32,000 nt of DNA from Conchiformibius steedae. GTDB taxonomy: Bacteria; Pseudomonadota; Gammaproteobacteria; Burkholderiales; Neisseriaceae. Below are positions 5,581 to 15,028 of this stretch, piece by piece. The position numbers and the translations under genes were made by a program. Every line of letters starts with the position of its first letter. The stretch's first letter is position 1. Where the stretch lies: positions 254,868 to 286,867 of the forward strand of contig NZ_CP059563.1 in assembly GCF_014054725.1 (NCBI RefSeq). The letters run 5' to 3'. The notes under the pieces were generated by a model. The model saw only the letters and a list, made by a program, of their open reading frames with translations. It was not told the DNA's origin and searched no databases.

Positions 5581-5970
5581 ATGAAAAAACATTTGCTGAC
5601 CGCGCTGCTGGTGTGCGCCACCCTTCCCGCCTTGGCTGCGCCCAAAGACACGGTGGTACGCCACTTTACCGCTTTTAGCAGCGACGGTGAAAACGGCTGG
5701 CGTGCAGTTATTCGCAATAATCGTATAGAATTGGAAACCATTAAGGGCAATGAATACCACCGCCGCATTCCCGTCAAACGGCTGGCGTATGCCAAAGGCG
5801 TGGAATTTACCGGCAAAACCCGTTTTGGCGAAGTAACCTTAAACATCAACAGCCAACGTTGCCGCGACCACAACGGGCGCATGAACGAATTTACCGCCAA
5901 ACTGTATTATCGCGGCAAGGTGGTAAAAGGTTGTGCGGTACGCGGTGCTTACGGACACGCGCCCACCTGA
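5581..5970 (+). CDS. small secreted/periplasmic protein, unknown function
   Basis: MKKHLLTALLVCATLPALA/AP signal peptide. 129 aa with two Cys near the C-terminus. The 3' end overlaps the convergent nfi-like fragment by about 22 nt. Confidence 0.6.
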   Translation: MKKHLLTALLVCATLPALAAPKDTVVRHFTAFSSDGENGWRAVIRNNRIELETIKGNEYHRRIPVKRLAYAKGVEFTGKTRFGEVTLNINSQRCRDHNGRMNEFTAKLYYRGKVVKGCAVRGAYGHAPT

Positions 5971-6149
5971 CGGCTTAAACGGTCCACACGGGCAAGGATT
6001 TCGGGAATGCCCCCGTTGCCCGACAAATCCCGCACCCATTGTTTGGCATCTTCCAATGCCATGCCCGCAGCGGTTACATATAAAGGGCGTTGGCTACGCC
6101 CACGGTACACACAATAGACCTTATATGATAGCCCTAAATTTAAGGGGCT
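5949..6149 (-). pseudogene. endonuclease V-like gene, 3' fragment (split by the prophage)
   Basis: The minus-strand frame reads ...SPLNLGLSYKVYCVYRGRSQRPLYVTAAGMALEDAKQWVRDLSGNGGIPEILARVDRLSRQ*. This resembles the C-terminal endonuclease V motifs as I remember them (PL[YF][VI]..G..., [IL]PE..R.A[DH]). There is no start codon of its own at the homologous position. Confidence 0.6.
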
Positions 6150-6204
6150 GTAAAACAATCTGATTTTATCAAAGCCCCTATGTTTAACTAAATTTAGGGG
6201 CTTT
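6130..6204. repeat. target palindrome plus an element-borne near-copy
   Basis: The host palindrome AGCCCTAAATTTAAGGGGCT lies at 6130-6149. Inside the element's left end, CTAAATTTAGGGGCT (6188-6202) repeats host 6134-6149 with a 1-nt indel. It forms a 9-bp hairpin AAAGCCCCT (6171-6179) / AGGGGCTTT (6196-6204). Confidence 0.7.
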
Positions 6205-6208
6205 AGTT

Positions 6209-6433
6209 ATGTCTGTTCAAAAAGATTCTTTACCAAAACGGTTTGTAGTCGTTTTGCCAAATGTTGTACCCAATACCTTATTACTTGAATTCCGTTCCTT
6301 TGAAGCTCCCCATTTGGGGACAGTTGCACTTGTAGAAATCGATTGCCGACAAGATTGGCAAGAAACTCAAGAAGCAATGGAAGTGTTTATCAACACGGGC
6401 GTTTTGAATTTAAAGGGGCTGGTTTATGTCTGA
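6209..6433 (+). CDS. phage hypothetical protein (74 aa)
   Basis: AGGGG RBS 8 nt upstream. The stop overlaps the next start (ATGTCTGA). This is the first gene of the prophage. I recognise no motif. Confidence 0.55.
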   Translation: MSVQKDSLPKRFVVVLPNVVPNTLLLEFRSFEAPHLGTVALVEIDCRQDWQETQEAMEVFINTGVLNLKGLVYV

Positions 6434-6656
6434 AGTTTTAATTTTGAATCCTGTTGATGAAGATTTGAGCTTTGAACAAATTTTATTAGAAGAACAAATC
6501 ATGGGGCGATATCGCGTATATGCAGATGGCACAGTACAAAATGCTGATGAAGAAAAGCCATTTTCGTTTATGAGTGATGATTTCGTGATTGTTCGCGCAA
6601 TTGATGAAGAACACGCCTATGCGATTTGGCAAGATAAGAATAAGGGGGCTGCATAA
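6426..6656 (+). CDS. phage hypothetical acidic protein (76 aa)
   Basis: AAAGGGG RBS. Translationally coupled to both neighbours (TAATG overlap with rep). Confidence 0.55.
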   Translation: MSEVLILNPVDEDLSFEQILLEEQIMGRYRVYADGTVQNADEEKPFSFMSDDFVIVRAIDEEHAYAIWQDKNKGAA

Positions 6657-8068
6657 TGGGTTATGAAATCGTAAAAACCGAGAGCGGTAAATACACGCTC
6701 TACATAGACGGTTGTCATATCCACGATTACAGCCGCCGCCGTGATGCAGTTCGCCGTGTCCGCCAATTGCAGGAGCGTGGCGGAGCGGACGCACAAACAG
6801 ACAGCCGCGCAGCGGCGGCAGTTTGTGCGGTCGCGCAGCCCGCCCCCGCTAGTAACACGGGGGGAACGGATTGCGCGGGTCAGGTCAGCCAATCTTACAG
6901 CCATACCGTTATGGTGCGTGGCAAGGTCAAACACATTCCTTTAAGACGGGGTGTCGGTACAGCAGCACATATTGACACTTTAACCTTAACCATGCGCGAA
7001 GACGTATTTGCTGAAGAAGTCCAAGTGCATACGGACGAAACTAAAGCCACACTTGCAAAAAGTATTTCGCAAACTTTGCATACCCTAATGGGCTTTGGCA
7101 TTTACGAAGAACGCAACGGCATTAACGGCTATAAATATTCCTACCGTATGGGTACGGACAATGCCACTTACGGGATTGTCGCCTTTGGCGGCACCAATCA
7201 AAAAGGCAGTGTCATGATTTACTTTTACGGCGATGGTCTGACTGCCGCTAAAGACGGTTGGGAAACCCGTTTATATAACTGGCTGAGTGCATTTGCCCCG
7301 TATGCCACGATTACCCGCTGCGACCTTGCTCACGACTTTTTAGATGGCGGCTACACTCCCGACCAAGCCTATCAAGATTGGCTGGGTGGTGGTTATACCG
7401 CCAATAACCGCCGACCGCGAGCCCGTAAACATGGTTACGACTGGTTAGATGACCAACGCACAGGCAAAACCTTTTATGTCGGCACACCGCAAAGTTCACG
7501 ACTTTTGCGTGTGTATGAAAAAGGCTGCGAACAGGGCGATTATACAAGTCCATGGGTACGGGTGGAATTGCAGCTCCGTAACCGCGAAATCATTATCCCC
7601 CATGAAATCCTGCTTTATCCAGGCGAGTACCTGACGGGTACATATCCTGCATTGGCAGCATTATTTGCCCGATATACCCATGCACCTAAAAAAGTTGAAT
7701 ATATAAAAAAGTCCGTTGAAATCGGGCTGGAGCATTGTGTCCGTTATGCCAGTATGCAGGCATCAGGTACGGTAAATGCCCTTGAAGCATACGGGCTGGC
7801 AGACCATGAAATCGTCAAACTGCTTAAAGGCGGTAAAAAAAAGCTCCCCAAACGGTTGAGGGCTGACCGTTACGATTGCAACCATGCCGATGTTATCTAC
7901 CTGCATGAGCTGCTAGGCAAGCCCGATGTCGCAGTCAAAGACTATATGGACGGCTTATATCGCCAAGAGCAGGCGAGCAAACGCCAAGCATACTTTGACC
8001 GTTTGGAACAAGATGCCATGCAGCACCGCATGAGTGCAGATTATCAATCATTTGGACGAATGTTGTAG
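6656..8068 (+). CDS. rolling-circle replication initiation protein (Rep_trans / RstA / gpII-like)
   Basis: 470 aa. From about residue 105 (AHIDTLTLT...) to the C-terminus it resembles phage/plasmid Rep_trans initiators (CDLAHDF, TFYVGTPQSSRLLRVYEKG, VRVELQLR). It sits at the head of the inovirus module. The N-terminal 100 or so aa are an extra Arg/Ala-rich extension. Confidence 0.75.
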   Translation: MGYEIVKTESGKYTLYIDGCHIHDYSRRRDAVRRVRQLQERGGADAQTDSRAAAAVCAVAQPAPASNTGGTDCAGQVSQSYSHTVMVRGKVKHIPLRRGVGTAAHIDTLTLTMREDVFAEEVQVHTDETKATLAKSISQTLHTLMGFGIYEERNGINGYKYSYRMGTDNATYGIVAFGGTNQKGSVMIYFYGDGLTAAKDGWETRLYNWLSAFAPYATITRCDLAHDFLDGGYTPDQAYQDWLGGGYTANNRRPRARKHGYDWLDDQRTGKTFYVGTPQSSRLLRVYEKGCEQGDYTSPWVRVELQLRNREIIIPHEILLYPGEYLTGTYPALAALFARYTHAPKKVEYIKKSVEIGLEHCVRYASMQASGTVNALEAYGLADHEIVKLLKGGKKKLPKRLRADRYDCNHADVIYLHELLGKPDVAVKDYMDGLYRQEQASKRQAYFDRLEQDAMQHRMSADYQSFGRML

Positions 8069-8098
8069 ATTTATTAACCAACCTTAAGGAAACCTTCA

Positions 8099-8413
8099 AT
8101 GAGAACGTTTTTGCGTAAAGTCAAATGCAATAAAGGCGTAACCGATAACGGCATCGAGTACGACTATACCCGCATTCAAATTGAAATCCCCGTTTATGAC
8201 AAACAGGAAAAAGAGTTTGGCGTTGATGTGCTTGAATTGGAATACGGTCTTTATGAAGACTTTAAAAAACTGGAACACCTGCGCGGCAAATTGCCCGTTG
8301 CTGTTGATGTGGAATGGTATGCAGCCAAGAAAGGCAATGATGAAATCAATGTCGTCAGCCGTTTGGACGTGATACACGACAAACCCACACCCAAACTGCA
8401 ACAACCGAATTGA
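8099..8413 (+). CDS. phage protein in the gV position (candidate ssDNA-binding protein)
   Basis: 104 aa, immediately downstream of rep with RBS AAGGAAA. The function is assigned by position and size only. Confidence 0.45.
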   Translation: MRTFLRKVKCNKGVTDNGIEYDYTRIQIEIPVYDKQEKEFGVDVLELEYGLYEDFKKLEHLRGKLPVAVDVEWYAAKKGNDEINVVSRLDVIHDKPTPKLQQPN

Positions 8414-8487
8414 TGCAACTGTTTTGCGTTAAGGGCGGCGGCGCAAAAAGCCCCTTACCCAGCCGCCCATGAATAAGGATAGATTTC

Positions 8488-8874
8488 ATGTATAAAATTC
8501 AATCATATTTTCCATTGTATTATCATGGCGATATGCCTGTTTATGAATACATGGAATTTGAAACCGCTGAAGAAGCAAAAGAGTTTTTAGATAATTTGGA
8601 CGTACCGTTTGATTGGGACAGAAGGATTTTTACGCTTGATGATAATTTTCACACGGTTTATTTAGATGATGACTTACAAAAATACTACTACTTTCCCGAA
8701 GGCGATGTTTCTATTTATGGTGCTGAAAGTTATGAAGAAGCATGTGAGATGCTTGAAGATAATACATATTTAGACTTGGATAGTTTGACATCGTTAGGAT
8801 TGGAACCTGTGGAAGATGTTTATGGTCCATTTTGTTATAAAGATTTTTGCTTTCTTGATGAAAGTTATGAATAA
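8488..8874 (+). CDS. hyper-acidic Tyr-rich phage protein (moron), unknown function
   Basis: 128 aa with 33 D/E against 6 K/R and 16 Tyr, counted from the translation. The gene is visibly AT-rich compared with its neighbours. RBS AAGGATAG. It ends at a TAA lying inside the second copy of an 86-bp repeat. Confidence 0.7.
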   Translation: MYKIQSYFPLYYHGDMPVYEYMEFETAEEAKEFLDNLDVPFDWDRRIFTLDDNFHTVYLDDDLQKYYYFPEGDVSIYGAESYEEACEMLEDNTYLDLDSLTSLGLEPVEDVYGPFCYKDFCFLDESYE

Positions 8875-8944
8875 GCATGTGAGATGCTTGAAAATAATAC
8901 ATACTTAGACTTGGATATTTTGACATCGTTAGGATTGGAACCTG
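8724..8944 (+). repeat. 86-bp direct duplication (8724-8809 and 8859-8944), offset 135 bp, 4 mismatches
   Basis: Copy 1 is TGAAAGTTATGAAGAAGCATGTGAGATGCTTGAAGATAATACATATTTAGACTTGGATAGTTTGACATCGTTAGGATTGGAACCTG. Copy 2 differs at 4 positions, and one of these (GAA to TAA at 8872) creates the stop codon of the acidic ORF. Confidence 0.9.
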
Positions 8945-8959
8945 ATGATGATGTGTTTT

Positions 8960-8990
8960 AACGCGAACGGCAGCCGCGTTAATGTTTTTT
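8960..8990 (+). terminator. terminator-like hairpin after the acidic moron
   Basis: AACGCG/CGCGTT stem (8960-8965 / 8975-8980) followed by AATGTTTTTT. An alternative GGCAGC/GCTGCC pairing extends to 9000. Confidence 0.4.
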
Positions 8991-9019
8991 AAAAGCTGCC
9001 TTACATTATGGAGTGAATC

Positions 9020-9250
9020 ATGAAAATCATGAATATTGCTAAAAAGTACGCCCCGCGTATGAACCAAGCCAAACTTGCTGTTGGTGGCGGCCTGATTATG
9101 TTGGCAGCCGCAGCACAAGCTGAAGTGCCGCAAGAAGTAACCCAAGCATTAGGCACTGCCAAAACAGATGCCTTACAAGTAGGCGGCATGGTGCTCGGCA
9201 TCATTGTTGCCATCTTTGCCCTGATGATGATGCGCCGCGTATTGCGTTAA
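9020..9250 (+). CDS. major coat protein (pVIII-like) precursor
   Basis: 76 aa. Signal peptide ...LAAAAQA/EV. The 42-aa mature peptide has an acidic N-terminus, a hydrophobic core (GGMVLGIIVAIFALMMM) and a basic C-terminus (RRVLR). RBS GGAG. Confidence 0.8.
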   Translation: MKIMNIAKKYAPRMNQAKLAVGGGLIMLAAAAQAEVPQEVTQALGTAKTDALQVGGMVLGIIVAIFALMMMRRVLR

Positions 9251-9257
9251 TCAATAA

Positions 9258-9289
9258 GCGGGTATGCAGTGGTTCTGCTGTGTACCCGC
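9258..9289 (+). promoter_or_regulatory. stable stem-loop directly after the major coat gene (attenuator/terminator-like)
   Basis: GCGGGTA/TACCCGC outer stem with an inner GCAG/CTGC stem. No T-tract. Its position is analogous to the terminator after gVIII in Ff phages. Confidence 0.35.
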
Positions 9290-9308
9290 CCACATAAAGG
9301 GCAACAAA

Positions 9309-9614
9309 ATGGGATACCAAGTAGGAAATACCTGTTATGCGACAAAAGGCGCAGCCGAAAACGCCTATTTCAGTCAAGTTGCGCCTGTGATTCAGCAAAA
9401 CGGCAGATTGCTGCAACTGCAATACAACGGCAATCCCAAACATATTGACGGCGGTTGGACATTAAACGGGCGGACGGTATCAGCTAGTTTGCCACAATGC
9501 AGCCCCGCCGAAAACTTTAAAGACGGCGCACAAATCGGCTTTATGTTTCTGCTCGCAGCCATCGGACTATGGACGGTGTTCAACATTAAAACCATATTGG
9601 ACAAGTTCTCATGA
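9309..9614 (+). CDS. phage membrane-anchored protein (minor virion/assembly protein candidate)
   Basis: ATG at 9309 preceded by AAAGGG. 101 aa with a C-terminal TM segment (IGFMFLLAAIGLWTVF). The stop overlaps the next ATG (ATGA). Confidence 0.6.
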   Translation: MGYQVGNTCYATKGAAENAYFSQVAPVIQQNGRLLQLQYNGNPKHIDGGWTLNGRTVSASLPQCSPAENFKDGAQIGFMFLLAAIGLWTVFNIKTILDKFS

Positions 9615-9682
9615 TGGACTTTTACTTTTATTTAGGCTTTGGCTTTTGGGTTATGGTCGCTCTATTCCTTTTGAAATTATGA
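9611..9682 (+). CDS. 23-aa hydrophobic peptide (pVII/pIX-like minor coat candidate)
   Basis: Not in the ORF track because it is below the size cutoff. It reads MMDFYFYLGFGFWVMVALFLLKL*. ATGA overlaps occur at both ends (9611-9614 and 9679-9682), which is typical translational coupling in inoviruses. Confidence 0.5.
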   Translation: MMDFYFYLGFGFWVMVALFLLKL

Positions 9683-11538
9683 AAAAACTCTTGCTTGCTG
9701 CGTTATTGACTACTGCTCCACTCTGCCACGCCGAAAATGTTGCCCAAATCACGGGCGGAAACTATATCTTTGCCGATGCCCAAAATCAGCGGCTGATTTT
9801 TAACTTTGAACCATCTGTATTTGAGAATCGCACATGGGGTTTTGACGAGCCGAGCGACAACGCAACCACACAATTTACGGTAGCAGATATGCCCCTTAAA
9901 ACTCTGCATTCGTCAGAGTTTCATGCTTATGAGCGGGTAGCTGGCGGCGGTTATGCCATAGTTGCCACTTATAACCCGAAGCAACATCGGGCAATGTTGA
10001 TGCGCCCTGTCTATCGTCCCAATGTTAATGATGGCGAACGTGTACGGGTATGGCTGCCAGCAGTGGGCTGGATTGTACGGGTAGGCGGTACGGTGGCGCG
10101 CAGCGTGTTACCACCTATTATCACTAATTGTTTGGCAAGTACAAAATGTAAAACTGTTGCAGCTGTGGTTATACCTCATTTATGCGCTATCAATTATTGG
10201 GGTATAGGGCATTTTAAGGAAGGATTTTTACAAGAAATTGGCTTTCCTGAAAGTTTTTGCAAGACTGCCGAAGAAGAAGGCTACAAACCCGAACAGATAA
10301 CCAACCCCCAAACAGGCAAGCAGGGCAAAACGTATGTTAAAGAGTACCCTTATGTACTCAAAGGACATTGGGGTAAAACCAGACATAGCGATTGCGAACC
10401 CGGTCATGAAAAAGAGTGCGCCCCCGAATACCGTCAAATATTGATTGGTGCGAACAGTGCTGAACACGCCCGAAGCATTGCAAATGATATGTGTAAAAAA
10501 TTGGTGGGTACATCATACACAGGCATTGACCCTAACAATCATGATAACTATGGATTAACGGGTAAAGTAAAAAGTGCAGAGCTGAAAAAAGACGGAGACC
10601 TTTTAGGCTGTTCAACATTAGCAACAGATGATAACGGCGAAGATTTTATCGGACCGAGTTTTATTGTCAGGGTTTTAAGGGAAAATTATAAAGAAAAAAT
10701 CCAAATGGTTGATGTTGTGAATTTGGTATCAAAAGACTTTAAGAAAAACCCCACGCCCTACATGAACGACAAAGGTCAGGTAGGCAAAGACTTACGCAAA
10801 GCAATCAAACCAAAGGCAACCATTGAAAAGAAAGACGGTACTGGTGGAACAGTAACCGCATCAAGCCCGCCTTATCTTGACCCTAAAACAGGTAAATCCG
10901 TTCAAGACAATGTACGCATTACCGCAACACCCAGTAAAAAAGGCGACTTGCCGCCGCCATCATCAGGCGGAGCAGGAAACGGAGCGGGTGGCAGCCCATC
11001 ATCAGGCACAGGCGGCAGCGGTAATACAGGCATCAATAACGGCGGCGGCAGCGGAAACAGCGTAAGTGTAACCACCACACCCCGCCCCGACAAACAGTCT
11101 GAAGCTGTAACAGCAGGAAATAACAACCCCAACGGAACCAATCCCAAAGGGAGCGGCAGCAACGGACAGGGTACGGAGCAAGGCGGCAGCAGTTCGGGAG
11201 ACGGAGCAGCGGGCGGTGGTGGCAAAAAAGGAGATGGCGGCGGATTGGATTGTTCAGGCGAGCATCGTAACACCCTTGCTTGCGCCCAAATGGGCGAAGT
11301 TGATACAGAGCAGTCTTTTGAAGTGCCGACCACAACCATTGATAAGAAATTTGAAGCCGACAACTTTTTACCAACCGCAGGTTACTGTCCCAATCCCAAA
11401 CACGTTGTTATGTTGGGCCGCACCTACACCATTAGTTACAACTGGCTGTGCCAATTCGCCCAACAAATCCGTATGCTGATTATCGGGCTTGCCTATCTGA
11501 TGGCAGCTTATATTATTTTTGCGGGCAAAAAAGACTAA
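9679..11538 (+). CDS. pIII-like adsorption/minor coat protein
   Basis: ATG at 9679 gives the signal peptide MKKLLLAALLTTAPLCHA/EN. 619 aa. It has Cys-containing N-terminal domains, a long Gly/Ser/Asn/Thr low-complexity linker (about nt 10950-11245) and a C-terminal membrane anchor (MLIIGLAYLMAAYIIFAGKKD). Confidence 0.7.
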   Translation: MKKLLLAALLTTAPLCHAENVAQITGGNYIFADAQNQRLIFNFEPSVFENRTWGFDEPSDNATTQFTVADMPLKTLHSSEFHAYERVAGGGYAIVATYNPKQHRAMLMRPVYRPNVNDGERVRVWLPAVGWIVRVGGTVARSVLPPIITNCLASTKCKTVAAVVIPHLCAINYWGIGHFKEGFLQEIGFPESFCKTAEEEGYKPEQITNPQTGKQGKTYVKEYPYVLKGHWGKTRHSDCEPGHEKECAPEYRQILIGANSAEHARSIANDMCKKLVGTSYTGIDPNNHDNYGLTGKVKSAELKKDGDLLGCSTLATDDNGEDFIGPSFIVRVLRENYKEKIQMVDVVNLVSKDFKKNPTPYMNDKGQVGKDLRKAIKPKATIEKKDGTGGTVTASSPPYLDPKTGKSVQDNVRITATPSKKGDLPPPSSGGAGNGAGGSPSSGTGGSGNTGINNGGGSGNSVSVTTTPRPDKQSEAVTAGNNNPNGTNPKGSGSNGQGTEQGGSSSGDGAAGGGGKKGDGGGLDCSGEHRNTLACAQMGEVDTEQSFEVPTTTIDKKFEADNFLPTAGYCPNPKHVVMLGRTYTISYNWLCQFAQQIRMLIIGLAYLMAAYIIFAGKKD

Positions 11539-11613
11539 ACGGTTTCAACCCATGTTTATTTATGTCAGTAGCGTAACGACCTATCCCCCATCGGGATGGA
11601 GGAGGCAGAGAGA

Positions 11614-11653
11614 GGGGCATTTGCCTGACAGGGGCTAAATGCCCCTGTCGGGC
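11614..11653 (+). repeat. two mutually exclusive hairpins in the phage intergenic region
   Basis: GCCTGACAGGGGC (11623-11635) pairs with GCCCCTGTCGGGC (11641-11653): 13 bp, 1 mismatch, loop TAAAT. The alternative is GGGGCATTT (11614-11622) pairing with AAATGCCCC (11637-11645). Confidence 0.7.
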
Positions 11654-11686
11654 AAGCAACGTCCAGTGTAGCTGTGGCGTAGCCTT

Positions 11687-11876
11687 GTAATCCATCGGTC
11701 TGTTATCGGCGTCGCTTCGGGGCATGGTTGGATAGCAACGCAGTCAGCGCAAAGTAAAGGGGGAAGCTTTGTAAAGATTGCTTGCAATCTTTACGAATAC
11801 CCCCTTTACTTTGTGATGACGGAGTTGCCCAATCCATAAGCCCCGAAGCAGAGCCGATAACAGACCGATGGATTAC
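11687..11876 (+). repeat. 190-nt imperfect palindrome (long hairpin), candidate packaging signal / ssDNA origin structure
   Basis: Perfect 24-bp outer stem GTAATCCATCGGTCTGTTATCGGC (11687-11710) / GCCGATAACAGACCGATGGATTAC (11853-11876). Moving inward there are a 10-bp stem GCTTCGGGGC/GCCCCGAAGC, a 14-bp stem CAAAGTAAAGGGGG/CCCCCTTTACTTTG and an 11-bp apical stem GTAAAGATTGC/GCAATCTTTAC, separated by small internal loops. Confidence 0.85.
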
Positions 11877-11922
11877 TACAGCGGAACGGGTTTTTACCGC
11901 AACTGAAAGAAAAGGATTCAAC

Positions 11923-12207
11923 ATGAATTTTTTAATCAAAGCCTTTCAATCCTTGCTGGTTTGGGGTGTGTCAAAATTAATGTTGGCATTTGGTGTGTCT
12001 TTTGTTGCCTACAAAGGTTTGGAATTGTCGCTTAAAGCCATTAAGGGTTATGTGCAAAGCACAGTTTCAGGCATACCTGCCGATGCCTACAATCTAATGC
12101 TGATGGCAGGATTCGGACAGGCATTGGGGATTATATTTGGCGCATATGCCTTTAATGTGGCTTTAACGGCAAGTAACAAACTGGCAACAGGCGTATTGAA
12201 AAAATAA
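11923..12207 (+). CDS. pVI-like small membrane protein (DUF2523-like, precedes zot)
   Basis: ATG at 11923 with RBS AAAGGA. The ORF-track start at 11782 lies inside the palindrome and was rejected. 94 aa with two or three hydrophobic segments, in the conserved position upstream of the Zot-like gene. Confidence 0.65.
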   Translation: MNFLIKAFQSLLVWGVSKLMLAFGVSFVAYKGLELSLKAIKGYVQSTVSGIPADAYNLMLMAGFGQALGIIFGAYAFNVALTASNKLATGVLKK

Positions 12208-12233
12208 GTTTTTTGATGATTTAAGGGGCAATC

Positions 12234-13385
12234 ATGATTATTTTGCAAACGGGCGTACCGGGCAGCGGCAAAACTGCGAGTGTGGTCGCCATGTTAATGA
12301 ATGACGAAAGTTACACACATTTTACAGATAAAGACGGCGTTAAGAAGAAACGCCCTTTATTCGTAAACGGTATTAACGAATTACTTTTAGAGCACACACA
12401 ATTAGACGATGAACAAATCCGCGCACAACCTTTACAGGATTTTTTGCCCTATGGCTCGCTGGTTGTCATTGACGAAGTGCAGCGGTTAATGGGTGCACGT
12501 TCACCGGCAAGCAAAGTACCGCCTTATATTGAAGCTTTAGCCACACACCGCCATCATGGTTTGGATATTATCCTGATTACGCAACATCCAAGCTTTCTTG
12601 ACCCCTTTGTCCGCAAATTGGTACAGCGGCACATACATATCAGCATCAAAGCCGTTGGCAGGAAATTATACGAATGGAACGAATGTGTAGACCAGCCTGA
12701 CAGCCCCGTAAATATTGCAAGAGCGATTGAACGGCAGTTCAAGTTGCCAAAACAGGCTTTTGAACAATATAAATCAGCAGAAGTTCATACAAAGCCTAAA
12801 CGCAGGCTTCCCAAAAGCCTAATATTTCTGATTTTTTTATTGCCAATTTTGACGGTTTACGGATATTACACATTTTCACGTTTAAAAGATAAATATACAG
12901 GTAATGAACAAACACCGACAGAGCAGGCAGCATCAGCAGTTGTTGCAAGTGATACCGTAACCGATGCAGGGGGATTAGTTGATACACCTGCTACCACCAC
13001 AGGGCAATCATTAACCGCTGAAATGTTTGCCCCAACCATACCTGAAAAGCCCGAATCCAAACCATTATATGACGGTGTGCGGCAGGTAAGAACTTTTGAG
13101 CGTATTGCTGCTTGTGTGAAAGGCGGGCAAACAGGCTGCACCTGTTACAGCGACCAAGCGACCCCACTCATAGAGATTAGCAAATCTCAATGCTTGCAGT
13201 ATGTCAAAAACGGCTTGCCGTTTGACCCTTACCGTGAACCGCCGCAGGAATTACCACCGCAACAGGTAACAGAGCCGCAAACAGAAGCAGTACAAACAGG
13301 GCAACAAGTGCTAACCTTATCATCGGGCGAGCCTAAAATGCCGAAGTCGCAAGACTACCCTAAACGCTTACAGGATATCCAATGA
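12234..13385 (+). CDS. Zot / pI-family phage assembly ATPase
   Basis: N-terminal P-loop MIILQTGVPGSGKT. Walker B LVVIDEVQ. Central TM segment LIFLIFLLPILTVYGYYTF. Periplasmic C-terminal domain. 383 aa. Confidence 0.85.
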   Translation: MIILQTGVPGSGKTASVVAMLMNDESYTHFTDKDGVKKKRPLFVNGINELLLEHTQLDDEQIRAQPLQDFLPYGSLVVIDEVQRLMGARSPASKVPPYIEALATHRHHGLDIILITQHPSFLDPFVRKLVQRHIHISIKAVGRKLYEWNECVDQPDSPVNIARAIERQFKLPKQAFEQYKSAEVHTKPKRRLPKSLIFLIFLLPILTVYGYYTFSRLKDKYTGNEQTPTEQAASAVVASDTVTDAGGLVDTPATTTGQSLTAEMFAPTIPEKPESKPLYDGVRQVRTFERIAACVKGGQTGCTCYSDQATPLIEISKSQCLQYVKNGLPFDPYREPPQELPPQQVTEPQTEAVQTGQQVLTLSSGEPKMPKSQDYPKRLQDIQ

Positions 13386-13606
13386 ATTACAGCACAACGG
13401 AAATGGTTAGCCGCAAACTGGCAGCAGATGCAGGGTGGGCGGGTTTGTATCTGACCGCATACGCAGGATTGGCACTCTTGGCAGCTTATTTGCTGTTCAG
13501 TTATGTAGCAAGGAAAAAACCGAAATATGAAGCAATTAGCCTTATTGTAGCGGCGACTTTGCTAACCATGCTGGCGGTTTGCGTTAAGTATTTTGTAAGG
13601 GTATGA
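13382..13606 (+). CDS. small two-TM membrane protein (74 aa), unknown function
   Basis: ATGA overlap with the zot stop. Two hydrophobic helices are separated by RKKPKYE. Confidence 0.5.
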   Translation: MNYSTTEMVSRKLAADAGWAGLYLTAYAGLALLAAYLLFSYVARKKPKYEAISLIVAATLLTMLAVCVKYFVRV

Positions 13607-13630
13607 TGCGGGCTTTTTGGGGTATACTTA

Positions 13631-13813
13631 ATGGTTACTGATATTCCGCCTTTCATTTTATATTTATGGGGTAATTTGTTTCTCATTGTGGCACTTGTAA
13701 TTTTTTCATTGCCCTATCGTGAAACAAAAGCTGCATTGCAAGCACGCTCTTTTGCTTTAGTAAATGCTTTAGTAATAGCAGCGTTAATGTTTTTTGCATG
13801 TATAGATTTTTAG
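13631..13813 (+). CDS. small two-TM membrane protein (60 aa), unknown function
   Basis: Hydrophobic helices IPPFILYLWGNLFLIVALVIFSL and FALVNALVIAALMFFACI. The RBS is weak or absent, hence the modest confidence. Confidence 0.4.
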   Translation: MVTDIPPFILYLWGNLFLIVALVIFSLPYRETKAALQARSFALVNALVIAALMFFACIDF

Positions 13814-14015
13814 ATGAAGCCCTAGACTTAAAGCCATTTGTATCTACAGATGGCTTTGGGATTCGGGCTTTCTCGAAACCTGAATCAGGCTGCCCAGTTC
13901 GTACACAGCCCTGAATAGTCATATTGTGGGGGAGATTGAACGGGCAGCTTTATTGGTCTAAAAGATTGAATATCATCAGAGCCGCTTTGCAGGCTGTACT
14001 ATAAGGAAAATCACC
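13814..14015 (+). ncRNA. structured non-coding leader of the recombinase gene (candidate bridge/seek-type guide RNA locus, unproven)
   Basis: About 200 nt with no ORF. Hairpins: AAAGCCAT (13830-13837)/ATGGCTTT (13850-13857); GATTCGGG (13860-13867)/CCTGAATC (13879-13886); TCAGGCTG (13885-13892)/CAGCCCTGA (13906-13914). AGATTGAA is repeated directly at 13933 and 13963. It occupies the position where IS110-group elements encode their guide RNA. Confidence 0.25.
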
Positions 14016-14978
14016 TTGAATATAATCGGTTTGGACATTTCAAAAGACCATGTGGACTGTTATTTAAGGAAGAAAGACGGCAGAGAAGATTATTGCCGAA
14101 TCGGTAACGATATGGCGGGATTTTTGCTCTTGCATGAAAAAATCAAACAACACCGTATCCGAAAGTTGTTGGTGTGTATGGAAGCAACGGGCATTTATTA
14201 TGAGCAGTCTGCCAAGTATTTCAGCCGTTATTATAACGTGTGTGTAGTGAATCCTTTGAAAATTAAAGAACATGCCAAAAAAACGTTTGCCCGCACCAAA
14301 ACGGATAAGACCGACGCTAAACTTATTGCAGATTATGCTCGCCGTTATCATGACACGTTGCATGATTACCAGCCACCCAAATCAGAGCAGTACGAATTGG
14401 GTAAACTAAATGCACTGTTAAATCAGTTGAAAAAGCAGATTCAGCAACACCGCAATCAGTTACATTCAGCAAAGGACGATTATGTTGCGAATGTGCATAG
14501 TATGCTGATTCGGGAATTGGAGCGACATATGCGGCTGACGGTAGAGCGGATTGAACATGTGATTTGTTGCTCTGATTGGCATTGTCAGTACCGCAATTTG
14601 ATGACGATTCCCGGCATTGGCAAGGAAACTGCCGCAGTGCTAATTCAGCATTTGAGCAGTCGGAATTTTGCAACAGCCAATCAATTTGTGGCTTTCGCAG
14701 GTTTAAATCCGCAGATTGTCCGCTCAGGAACGAGTGTCTGCAAACCTGATAAATTAAGCAGGTTGGGACACAGGCATTTGAAACGTGCTTTGTTTATGCC
14801 CGCATTGGCTGCTGCTCGTAACGAATGCTTTAAAGGGTTTATTAAGCGTTTATTGGATAAAGGCAAAAAGAAAATGGTGGCACTGGTCGCGTTGATGCGA
14901 AAACTGGCAAAGATTGCTTACGGCATTTATAAGAACGGTAAACCATTCGATTGTAAGCTTTATCAAGCACCAGTCTGA
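14016..14978 (+). CDS. IS110/Piv-family DEDD recombinase (transposase)
   Basis: TTG start with an AAGGA RBS 7 nt upstream. The N-terminal DEDD-type domain has MNIIGLDISKD, VCMEATGIYY and KTDKTDAKLIADYA. The C-terminal domain has the helix-hairpin-helix LMTIPGIGKETAAVLI and the RSGTS serine motif. 320 aa. Confidence 0.85.
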   Translation: MNIIGLDISKDHVDCYLRKKDGREDYCRIGNDMAGFLLLHEKIKQHRIRKLLVCMEATGIYYEQSAKYFSRYYNVCVVNPLKIKEHAKKTFARTKTDKTDAKLIADYARRYHDTLHDYQPPKSEQYELGKLNALLNQLKKQIQQHRNQLHSAKDDYVANVHSMLIRELERHMRLTVERIEHVICCSDWHCQYRNLMTIPGIGKETAAVLIQHLSSRNFATANQFVAFAGLNPQIVRSGTSVCKPDKLSRLGHRHLKRALFMPALAAARNECFKGFIKRLLDKGKKKMVALVALMRKLAKIAYGIYKNGKPFDCKLYQAPV

Positions 14979-14992
14979 TTTTTAACATGAAA

Positions 14993-15021
14993 AACAAGTG
15001 CATTATTTGCACATACTTGTT
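14993..15021 (-). terminator. weak minus-strand terminator-like hairpin inside the element's right end
   Basis: AACAAGT (14993-14999)/ACTTGTT (15015-15021) stem. On the minus strand it is followed by TTTTT. It contains the TAA (15020-15022) that ends the truncated nfi-like ORF. Confidence 0.35.
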
Positions 15022-15028
15022 AAATTAC

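Follow-up and report, generated by a model that had tools for sequence, protein, structure and literature searches.

A filamentous prophage of Conchiformibius steedae appears to carry an IS621-type bridge RNA and recombinase that select its integration site

Introduction

According to papers published in 2024, elements of the IS110 family in general use bridge or seek RNAs. The rules established for IS621 (PMC11208160) are that the left target guide and left donor guide (LTG and LDG) pair with the bottom strand, and so read like the top strand, that the top strand is the partner of the right target guide and right donor guide (RTG and RDG), which are thus its reverse complements, and that the CT core is included in every guide pairing. 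Here we describe a 32,000-nt stretch of the Conchiformibius steedae genome (hereafter the window; contig NZ_CP059563.1, positions 254,868 to 286,867 of the forward strand), in which the endonuclease V gene (nfi) is interrupted by an 8,930-bp filamentous, Nf/MDA-like prophage whose terminal gene encodes an IS110 recombinase.

Integration of Nf phages by an IS110 transposase at CT-core sites has been known since 2005, and only the RNA-guide layer is new. The Nf/MDA phages integrate at a CT motif in dRS3 repeats by means of the IS110/pivNM transposase (Kawai, 2005; Meyer, 2016; both via PMC7058167), and Nf1–Nf4 and MDA-phi (pivNM/irg; Kawai, 2005; Bille, 2005; Meyer, 2016; PMC7058167) have the same gene order as our prophage, Rep–coat B–TspB–Zot with the IS110 transposase last. 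The similarity extends to the tips: the left end (LE) TATATGAT... and the right end (RE) ...CAACATATCAT-CT equal the published Nf1 primers (PMC7058167). The window prophage differs in its host, Conchiformibius, in its target, a unique site in nfi rather than a dRS3 repeat, and in its recombinase, which is only 46–53% identical to those of the loci that we recovered from genomes. IS110 genes are also borne by other inoviruses (PMC11209303, PMC11437467); in Acinetobacter Af1 and Thermus phiOH16/Zuza the gene likewise lies at one end and is presumed to act in integration, although the recombinases of the Thermus phages are only about 29–32% identical to the one studied here.

In the literature that we searched, including a 2026 review, we found nothing that connects filamentous phages with bridge or seek RNAs; our coverage was incomplete and a prior description elsewhere is possible. 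The Nf enzyme is called a site-specific transposase or integrase in that literature, with no mention of a guide RNA. RNA use has been the default expectation for IS110 enzymes since 2024, making the present finding an expected extension, satisfying rather than astonishing. From the comparisons below we consider it highly probable that the prophage holds a complete IS621-type bridge-recombination module, consisting of the recombinase gene and a bridge-RNA gene directly upstream of it, and the phage appears to select its integration site by RNA base-pairing.

Results

The prophage is bounded by two CT cores within nfi

A search with the fused nfi protein found two uninterrupted homologues, one with 92% amino acid identity (P0121, on the metagenomic contig L006) and a second with 74% (L007). 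Alignment of uninterrupted nfi with both flanks of the prophage places the crossovers at the CT dinucleotides 6120-6121 and 15050-15051. Chromosomal sequence extends to CACAATAGAC-CT on the left and restarts at CT-CCCCCATATTG on the right, CT is the sole sequence common to both junctions, there is no target-site duplication, and the nfi reading frame (...NMGE|VYCVYRG...) is restored once the 8,930 bp are removed. The attB deduced in this way is CACAATAGAC-CT-CCCCCATATTG; the closest empty site, in L006, reads ATAGGCTTCCCCC (also written GGCTTCCCCC). The corresponding attP, in which the right and left ends are joined, is ...TTGACAGCCAACATATCAT-CT-TATATGATAGCCCTAAATTTAAGGGGCTGT..., its left-end side also being given as TATATGATAGCCC. 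The right end is short, with 71 nt from the recombinase stop codon to the core. On the other side, the CT at the left end is also present in nine related prophages, the start of the left end is kept both in the Conchiformibius kuhniae relative (L020) and in the Nf1 primers (PMC7058167), and hairpins equivalent to the one that follows it are found after the left-end start in relatives.

The original prediction, made from the window alone, had named an IS110/Piv recombinase as the last prophage gene, and both Pfam domains are indeed found in 14016-14978; its CT core without target duplication is likewise seen at both junctions in the empty-site alignment. The junctions themselves had been put at ~6143 and ~15028, in both cases about 23 nt inside the actual crossover, and the target had been called palindromic, which the corrected attB is not. 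The misplaced junctions also account for a further gap: the donor guides could not be found at that point, and we identified both LDG and RDG after the correction.

A structured RNA is predicted directly upstream of the recombinase gene

The 202-nt leader (13814-14015) folds better than 200 of 200 shuffled versions (z -3.87), in keeping with the structure originally proposed for it, and it contains the direct repeat AGATTGAA noted at the time, with copies at 13933 and 13963. RNAalifold applied to an alignment of leaders from related prophages (A3) gave 20 consensus pairs, 16 of them compensatory. Cells of the alignment that should be paired are so in 94.6% of cases compared with 77.5% in shuffles (0 of 500 reached the observed value), and pairing falls to 24–45% when the partners are slid by 1–3 columns. 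Helix 1 alone has 13 pairs, of which 11 show compensatory changes. We conclude that a bridge-RNA gene of ~130–150 nt probably lies directly 5′ of the recombinase gene on the same strand.

The predicted target-binding loop module consists of a closing stem (13887-13900 with 13938-13950), a 5′ loop (13901-13913), a distal hairpin (13914-13925) and a 3′ loop (13926-13937). The layout is shared by the related leaders, in which a long closing stem is followed by a 13-nt 5′ loop of the form G-NN-LTG7-core2-N, a small distal hairpin, and a 12-nt 3′ loop of the form G-N-RTG5-AG-ANN; next come a conserved GAUUGA followed by LDG7+CA, an AGCC/GGCU hairpin, an RDG ending in UAAG-G, and the start codon. 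Two short matches that had been offered as possible target contacts do not belong to this guide set. The 12/14 match between 13818-13831 and 6130-6143 exists, but the latter segment is the phage's own left-end hairpin rather than chromosome, and an equal match arises in 24 of 200 leader shuffles. GGCTGT (13992) is present as described, but it is the 3′ arm of the AGCC/GGCU hairpin, kept in almost all relatives, and not a guide.

A covariance model built from A3 (R1) recovers the window in cmsearch with 127.7 bits (E 1e-25) and gives one full-length match per related prophage, always directly 5′ of the recombinase. Run against IS110 elements with 29–35% identical recombinases, R1 gave no matches, suggesting that this RNA family is recognizable only inside the Neisseriaceae phage clade. 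Further upstream, the long hairpin at 13816-13871 is nearly identical in C. kuhniae L020, and terminator-like hairpins occupy the same place in Neisseria; it could be either the terminator of the phage operon or a 5′ stem-loop of the bridge RNA.

Four putative guide segments can be placed against the prophage ends and the target

With the junctions corrected, four segments of the leader can be placed as the guides are in IS621 (Table 1). The RTG matches core and right target (RT) perfectly. The LDG matches the left donor (LD) and core at 8 of 9 positions, the sole mismatch being the second core base. For the RDG, six contiguous positions match core and right donor (RD); over a 9-nt segment (13997-14005, CT core plus 7 nt of RD) the score is 7/9 here and 6–8/9 in relatives. 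The RDG overlaps the ribosome-binding region of the recombinase gene. In the RDG column of the alignment (A3 columns 155-165) a single mismatch to the left end is conserved, at RD +4 (+5 in the window), which suggests that it is tolerated or functional.

The LTG, whose position is set by alignment to the relatives, is the weakest of the four and is taken up again below. Joined to the RTG it predicts a perfect target, CACAGCCCTCCCCC (CACAGCC-CT-CCCCC), for which the window contains only chance-level near-matches; by simple probability, a genome of ~2 Mb is unlikely to include a perfect 14-nt target at all. Because the LTG fits the left target (LT) at only four of seven positions and a perfect target is absent or improbable, nfi looks like a half-matched secondary target, chosen mainly through its right side, where pairing is perfect.

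We rejected another LTG candidate found by eye, AATAGTCAT (13914-13922), which matches 7/9 of the left target, as it falls in the distal hairpin and not in the guide column. A separate 7-mer, GTACACA, within the 5′ loop of the target module (13901-13907), recurs in the left flank at 6105-6111, but its register there is off by 5 nt relative to the core. The recurrence could reflect either coincidence (post hoc, about 0.01) or extended pairing of an unusual kind.

Guides covary with flanks and ends across related prophages

To compare leaders we scanned one genome per species and obtained 17 Neisseriaceae loci with recombinases 39–53% identical to that of the window (Neisseria, Kingella, Simonsiella, Uruburuella, Eikenella and C. 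kuhniae), together with many ordinary IS110 elements at 29–35% identity. Nearly all of the Neisseriaceae loci of sufficient length carry Rep through Zot upstream and so are filamentous prophages. One module in an Eikenella metagenome-assembled genome (MAG; L031:9852-11136) had no recognizable phage genes upstream and may be a decayed or non-phage version.

Thirteen loci include the right junction, and in 11 of these the RTG is a perfect reverse complement of CT and the next 5 nt of right flank (among them L013, whose contig ends after 6 of the 7 positions, all six matching). Of the two that match at 6/7, one comes from a MAG with a homopolymer error and the other, L019, has G:U pairing at position seven. 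The right flanks comprise 11 distinct pentamers: CCCCC, TGCCG, ACGAA, TTGTG, GAAAC, TTTCG, TTTCC, TTTGT, TTTTC, TTTTA and GCGCG. Cognate guides and flanks pair at a mean of 4.9/5 positions versus 1.5/5 for non-cognate combinations, and none of 100,000 permutations reached the observed total.

On the donor side, the LDG equals LD in 16 of 16 cases (13 prophages and three circular genomes) through seven LD sequences, and the two change together: CTATCAT in C. kuhniae and OR148976, ATATAAT in Kingella, ATATTAT in Eikenella, ATACCAT in an N. flavescens phage and GTAGTAT in Dulem virus 50. On the left target side, the LTG matches LT at 5–7 of 7 positions (plus the core C) in nine relatives, and it shifts with the left flank (ACGAC vs ACGGC vs CTCGC vs ACGTC). 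An identical bridge RNA is found at two unrelated chromosomal loci (L210 and L216), both of which read AGACGRC-CT-TTTCC.

The Nf1-type prophages connect these observations with the published target, the dRS3 sequence ATTCCCRC-CT-RCGCGGRAAK (PMC7058167). N. gonorrhoeae and N. lactamica have an Nf1-type leader whose RTG, CGCGUAG, complements CT-ACGCG and whose LTG loop is AAUCCCGC; these are the two halves of dRS3. We note separately that in this leader (L018:2654-2804, L019:1950-2100) the LTG loop AAUCCCGCAA must be shifted by 1 nt relative to the rest of the family to fit the dRS3 left half ATTCCCGC, and in that register the CT core is left unpaired.

Within Conchiformibius, comparison of 6120-15051 with L020:2210-11004 of C. 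kuhniae shows backbones with 72–94% nucleotide identity that drop to 43–69% from the bridge RNA onward; the recombinases are 46% identical in amino acid sequence and all target guides differ. This looks like an exchange, or rapid retargeting, of a cassette made up of bridge RNA and recombinase.

The original prediction had proposed that the leader acts as a bispecific guide RNA and that, if so, leaders should covary with flanking target and donor sequence across related prophages. Such covariation was found, and it strongly supports the proposal in silico, although the evidence first cited for it (the short matches, the junctions and the palindrome) was wrong.

Two minor features of the relatives deserve mention. 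Prophages of commensal Neisseria and of Uruburuella are located at the 3′ foot of DUS-like sequences (..TTTCAGACGRC-CT-TTTxx; L008:3532, L009:3235, L011:2804, L016:2678, L017:2463, L021:3304, L022:2684, L210:3514 and L216:3467). At several loci these sequences make up an inverted-repeat terminator, for example GTCGTCTGAAAATTTTCAGACGAC. The published dRS3 target belongs to a different class. In L011, two copies of the left end (CT-TATATATTGCGCTCCATCAGGGGCGCA; L011:2804 and L011:3001) lie 197 nt apart upstream of a single prophage, which suggests the remnant of an earlier insertion or a tandem event.

Circular phage genomes contain the predicted donor junction

Three complete circular inovirus genomes of 7.5–8.5 kb from saliva viromes (OR148974.1, OR148976.1 and PP511607.1), whose recombinases are 43–53% identical to that of the window, have the order Zot–bridge RNA–transposase–RE|LE–Rep. 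In the phage-collection search, recombinase matches to circular inovirus genomes from saliva had 47–53% identity. In each of the three, the joined sequence ...LD-CT-TATATAT... agrees exactly with what the prophage ends, and the LDG and RDG of the same genome, predict, which supports the earlier suggestion that the whole phage replicative form serves as the donor circle. The virome records annotate the recombinase merely as "transposase". An exact 14-mer, ATATCATCTTATAT, was also tried as a probe for the RE-LE junction in viral contigs; it is AT-rich, matched more than 120 unrelated contigs, and was uninformative.

When the ends of the window prophage are joined, TTGACA from the right end and TATGAT from the left end are separated by 17 nt, and relatives as well as the circular genomes keep TTGAC(A) at a constant distance from the core. 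These elements are predicted to form a sigma-70-type promoter, presumably active in the circle; IS110 elements have a comparable junction promoter (PMC11208160).

The recombinase resembles the structurally solved bridge recombinases

In a search with PF01548/PF02371 the protein showed DEDD_Tnp_IS110 (E 1.8e-25) and Transposase_20 (E 9e-19) domains, and it has full-length homology to the solved bridge recombinases of ISCro4 (9t56, E 7e-48) and IS621 (8wt6, E 6e-47). D7, E56, D97, D100, S237 and S240 are invariant in 12 relatives. By its length the protein belongs to the short IS492/IS621/Piv branch described in PMC11187229. It is 100% identical to the "IS110 family transposase" of C. steedae DSM 2580, and NCBI now names some proteins of this kind "IS110 family RNA-guided transposase". 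An IMG/VR protein search with the recombinase returned no confirmed relatives.

Discussion

A model for integration and its relation to IS621

Taken together, the comparisons suggest the following model. In infected cells the replicative form would permanently present the RE-LE junction (attP) as a donor. A complex of recombinase and bridge RNA would hold this junction through LDG and RDG and the chromosomal site through LTG and RTG, and the recombinase, which its homologues suggest to be a tetramer using DEDD and Ser active sites, would swap strands at the two CT cores. The whole 8.9-kb phage would thereby be inserted without target duplication, inactivating nfi. Joining of the ends would create the promoter reading into the phage genes and integration would split it; the reverse reaction, or rolling-circle replication from the prophage, would regenerate the circle. 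We infer from the sequence comparisons that the RNA is transcribed, processed and bound by the protein, and that recombination depends on it.

The locus would be IS621-type by every testable feature but one. As in IS621 and ISCro4 (Durrant et al., 2024; Hiraizumi et al., 2024, 2026), a DEDD + Ser recombinase of ~320–340 aa (full-length homology with E about 1e-47) is preceded directly on its 5′ side by a noncoding RNA gene; the RNA has two loops, with left guides in sense and right guides in antisense orientation and the CT core included; both ends have CT cores, without target duplication; and a -35 element in RE and a -10 element in LE are joined only in the circle. The exception is the position of the guide RNA. 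In the IS621 type it lies beside the donor site in the left end and is transcribed from the junction promoter, whereas here ~7.7 kb of phage genes separate the donor site from the RNA gene and the promoter reads into viral genes. The "left end" of the element is, in effect, expanded by the entire viral genome. This separation poses no mechanistic obstacle, since the bridge RNA of IS621 also functions when provided in trans and can move multi-kb cargo (PMC11208160), and IS ends accept inserted cargo (PMC11187229). Other differences are that the donor circle here is a self-replicating viral replicative form, always present in infection, rather than a transient excision product; that the proteins are only about 30–35% identical and the RNA is not recognizable by sequence; and that the LTG here is seemingly shorter, with 4–5 nt plus the core matched in many relatives. 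The IS1111 seekRNA system (Siddiquee et al., 2024) shares the DEDD transposase family and RNA-guided target choice, but in that system the guide RNA follows the gene and the subterminal inverted repeats are long, whereas here RE has 71 nt and all guides are upstream.

Evidence against the model and alternative explanations

Several observations weigh against an active, RNA-guided module in this prophage. The left-end tip and junction promoter are 7.7 kb upstream of the RNA gene, with all phage genes in between, and a promoter scan of the + strand of 13300-14015 found no promoter in front of the RNA gene. No bridge-RNA family of Rfam 15 matched, either in the whole window at gathering thresholds or in 13400-15300 at E up to 10, where only chance microRNA-level matches appeared; the original prediction had proposed such a covariance-model search for bridge and seek RNAs. 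The LTG matches AATAGAC+CT at 4/7 plus the core, with a mismatch at position -2, and IS621 tolerates target mismatches poorly (PMC11208160). The attB of the strain itself is a reconstruction, the closest empty site being 92% identical at the protein level. Many of the relatives are phylogenetically close, which inflates the raw counts; the independent events are the 11 right-target pentamers. Finally, 15 of 15 public contigs with this recombinase have the identical nfi insertion, so the copy may be fixed and the mobility of this particular prophage is unproven.

The alternative that survives best is that the bridge-RNA system is genuine in the family but this prophage is an off-target or dead-end insertion at a half-matched site in nfi, now fixed because its poor LTG–LT pairing hinders excision and re-use. 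The 4/7 match here, compared with 5–7/7 in relatives, points that way, as do the single site shared by all contigs with this recombinase and the missing, improbable perfect 14-nt target; on the other hand, the recombinase open reading frame (ORF), the guides, both ends and both promoter halves are intact, and the sampling of C. steedae is tiny. We regard this as unlikely. It bears on the present state of this copy, and RNA-guided integration of the family could hold alongside it.

Target choice by the protein alone, the leader being only a 5′ untranslated region (UTR) or terminator region, is the classical Piv/IS110 view and, as Kawai (2005) is represented in PMC7058167, was the accepted account of Nf integration before 2024. 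The empty promoter scan would fit it. It leaves unexplained why each lineage's flank is matched base for base by 5 nt of its own leader although the recombinases are 46–53% identical to that of the window, and why right-end variants are mirrored in the leader; a UTR would not require four segments complementary to DNA several kilobases away. This explanation now seems very improbable to us.

Least probable of all is that recombinase and leader form an independent small IS110 element inside a phage that integrates by other means, for example by host XerCD as CTX-phi does: such elements do enter phages (our phage collection had IS110 matches in Stx and Wolbachia phages), but the LDG corresponds to the right-end sequence that borders chromosomal DNA, the RDG corresponds to the left end, 7.7 kb further upstream, with no left-end-like donor beside the RNA gene, both prophage–chromosome junctions are CT cores, and the circular virome genomes of 7.5–8.5 kb join exactly these ends.

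Implications of the proposed RNA-guided phage integration

If RNA-guided integration is correct, it would explain how phages of the Nf/MDA type, including the meningococcal disease-associated phage, choose their sites, and why these sites are lineage-specific (dRS3 repeats, DUS-like terminators, and a unique gene here). The attachment site of any such phage would become predictable from the 5+2 nt of the RTG and the 7+2 nt of the LTG. The system would also provide a natural large-cargo case of relevance to engineering, with 8–9 kb of self-replicating cargo moved and the guide RNA gene kilobases from the donor site, and a source of diverged natural recombinase/bridge-RNA pairs from human-associated bacteria. 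More speculatively, Nf-type phages might be natural RNA-programmable integrating viruses in which a swappable cassette of RNA and recombinase sets attP and attB, retargeting takes place through a few loop bases or cassette exchange, and the joined-end promoter is an episome-only switch that is off on integration; as a whole we would lean slightly against this broader picture.

Other features of the locus

The gene content of the prophage is that of a filamentous phage, with Pfam matches to Rep_trans, coat B, a TspB-like protein, DUF2523 and Zot ahead of the terminal IS110 recombinase. Coordinates are collected in Table 1.

Table 1. Features of the nfi-integrated prophage and its proposed recombination module (window coordinates)
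Feature	Position	Strand	Basis or remark
C-terminal part of split nfi	5949-6119	-	Pfam, ORF, and alignment to uninterrupted nfi (L006/L007)
Left target (LT) AATAGAC	6113-6119	+ (as read)	last 7 nt of the C-terminal nfi part
CT core at left junction (attL)	6120-6121	+	alignment (A1) of empty site to both flanks
Phage left end / right donor (RD) TATATGAT	6122-6129	+	complementary to RDG (14000-14005)
TATGAT, -10 half of predicted junction promoter	6124-6129	+	left end
Left-end hairpin AGCCC-TAAATTTAA-GGGGCT	6130-6149	+	
Filamentous-phage genes	6209-13813	all +	same-order homologues in relatives
Two small ORFs		+	first genes of the prophage
Rep_trans	6656-8068	+	
Coat protein B	9020-9250	+	
TspB-like adsorption protein	9646-11538	+	
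DUF2523	11782-12207	+	
Zot	12234-13385	+	
Two small membrane ORFs		+	between Zot and the leader region
Long hairpin upstream of guide RNA	13816-13871	+	minimum free energy fold
Predicted bridge-RNA gene	13868-14018	+	full-length match of covariance model R1; structured core 13887-14015
Predicted target-binding loop module	13887-13950	+	RNAalifold and pair counts
Putative LTG CACAGCC+CU	13904-13912	+	target top-strand sense; position set by alignment to relatives
Putative RTG GGGGGAG	13928-13934	+	reverse complement of CT+CCCCC (15050-15056), 7/7
Putative LDG AUAUCAUCA (AUAUCAU+CA)	13970-13978	+	same as phage right end ATATCAT+C (15043-15050)
Donor-loop distal hairpin AGCC...GGCU	13980-13995	+	helix 3, conserved; includes GGCTGT
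Putative RDG UAUAAG	14000-14005	+	reverse complement of CT+TATA (6120-6125), 6/6
IS110/Piv-group DEDD recombinase	14016-14978	+	Pfam; intact, 320 aa, TTG start
TTGACA, -35 half of predicted junction promoter	15031-15036	+	right end; joined-sequence count
Phage right end / left donor (LD) ATATCAT + CT core of right junction (attR)	15043-15051	+	
N-terminal part of split nfi	15052-15412	-	Pfam, ORF, and empty-site alignment
Right target (RT) CCCCC	15052-15056	+ (as read)	within the N-terminal nfi part

A second strong hairpin, AAAGCCCCTA...TAGGGGCTTT (6171-6204), lies between the junction promoter and the first phage ORF, just ahead of the latter. Hairpins resembling it are present in the circular virome genomes, and its role could be that of an operator, an origin or a packaging signal. 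The nfi gene disrupted by the prophage is the only visible endonuclease V gene, and a tRNA gene at 2283-2370 is the sole Rfam match in the window at gathering threshold.

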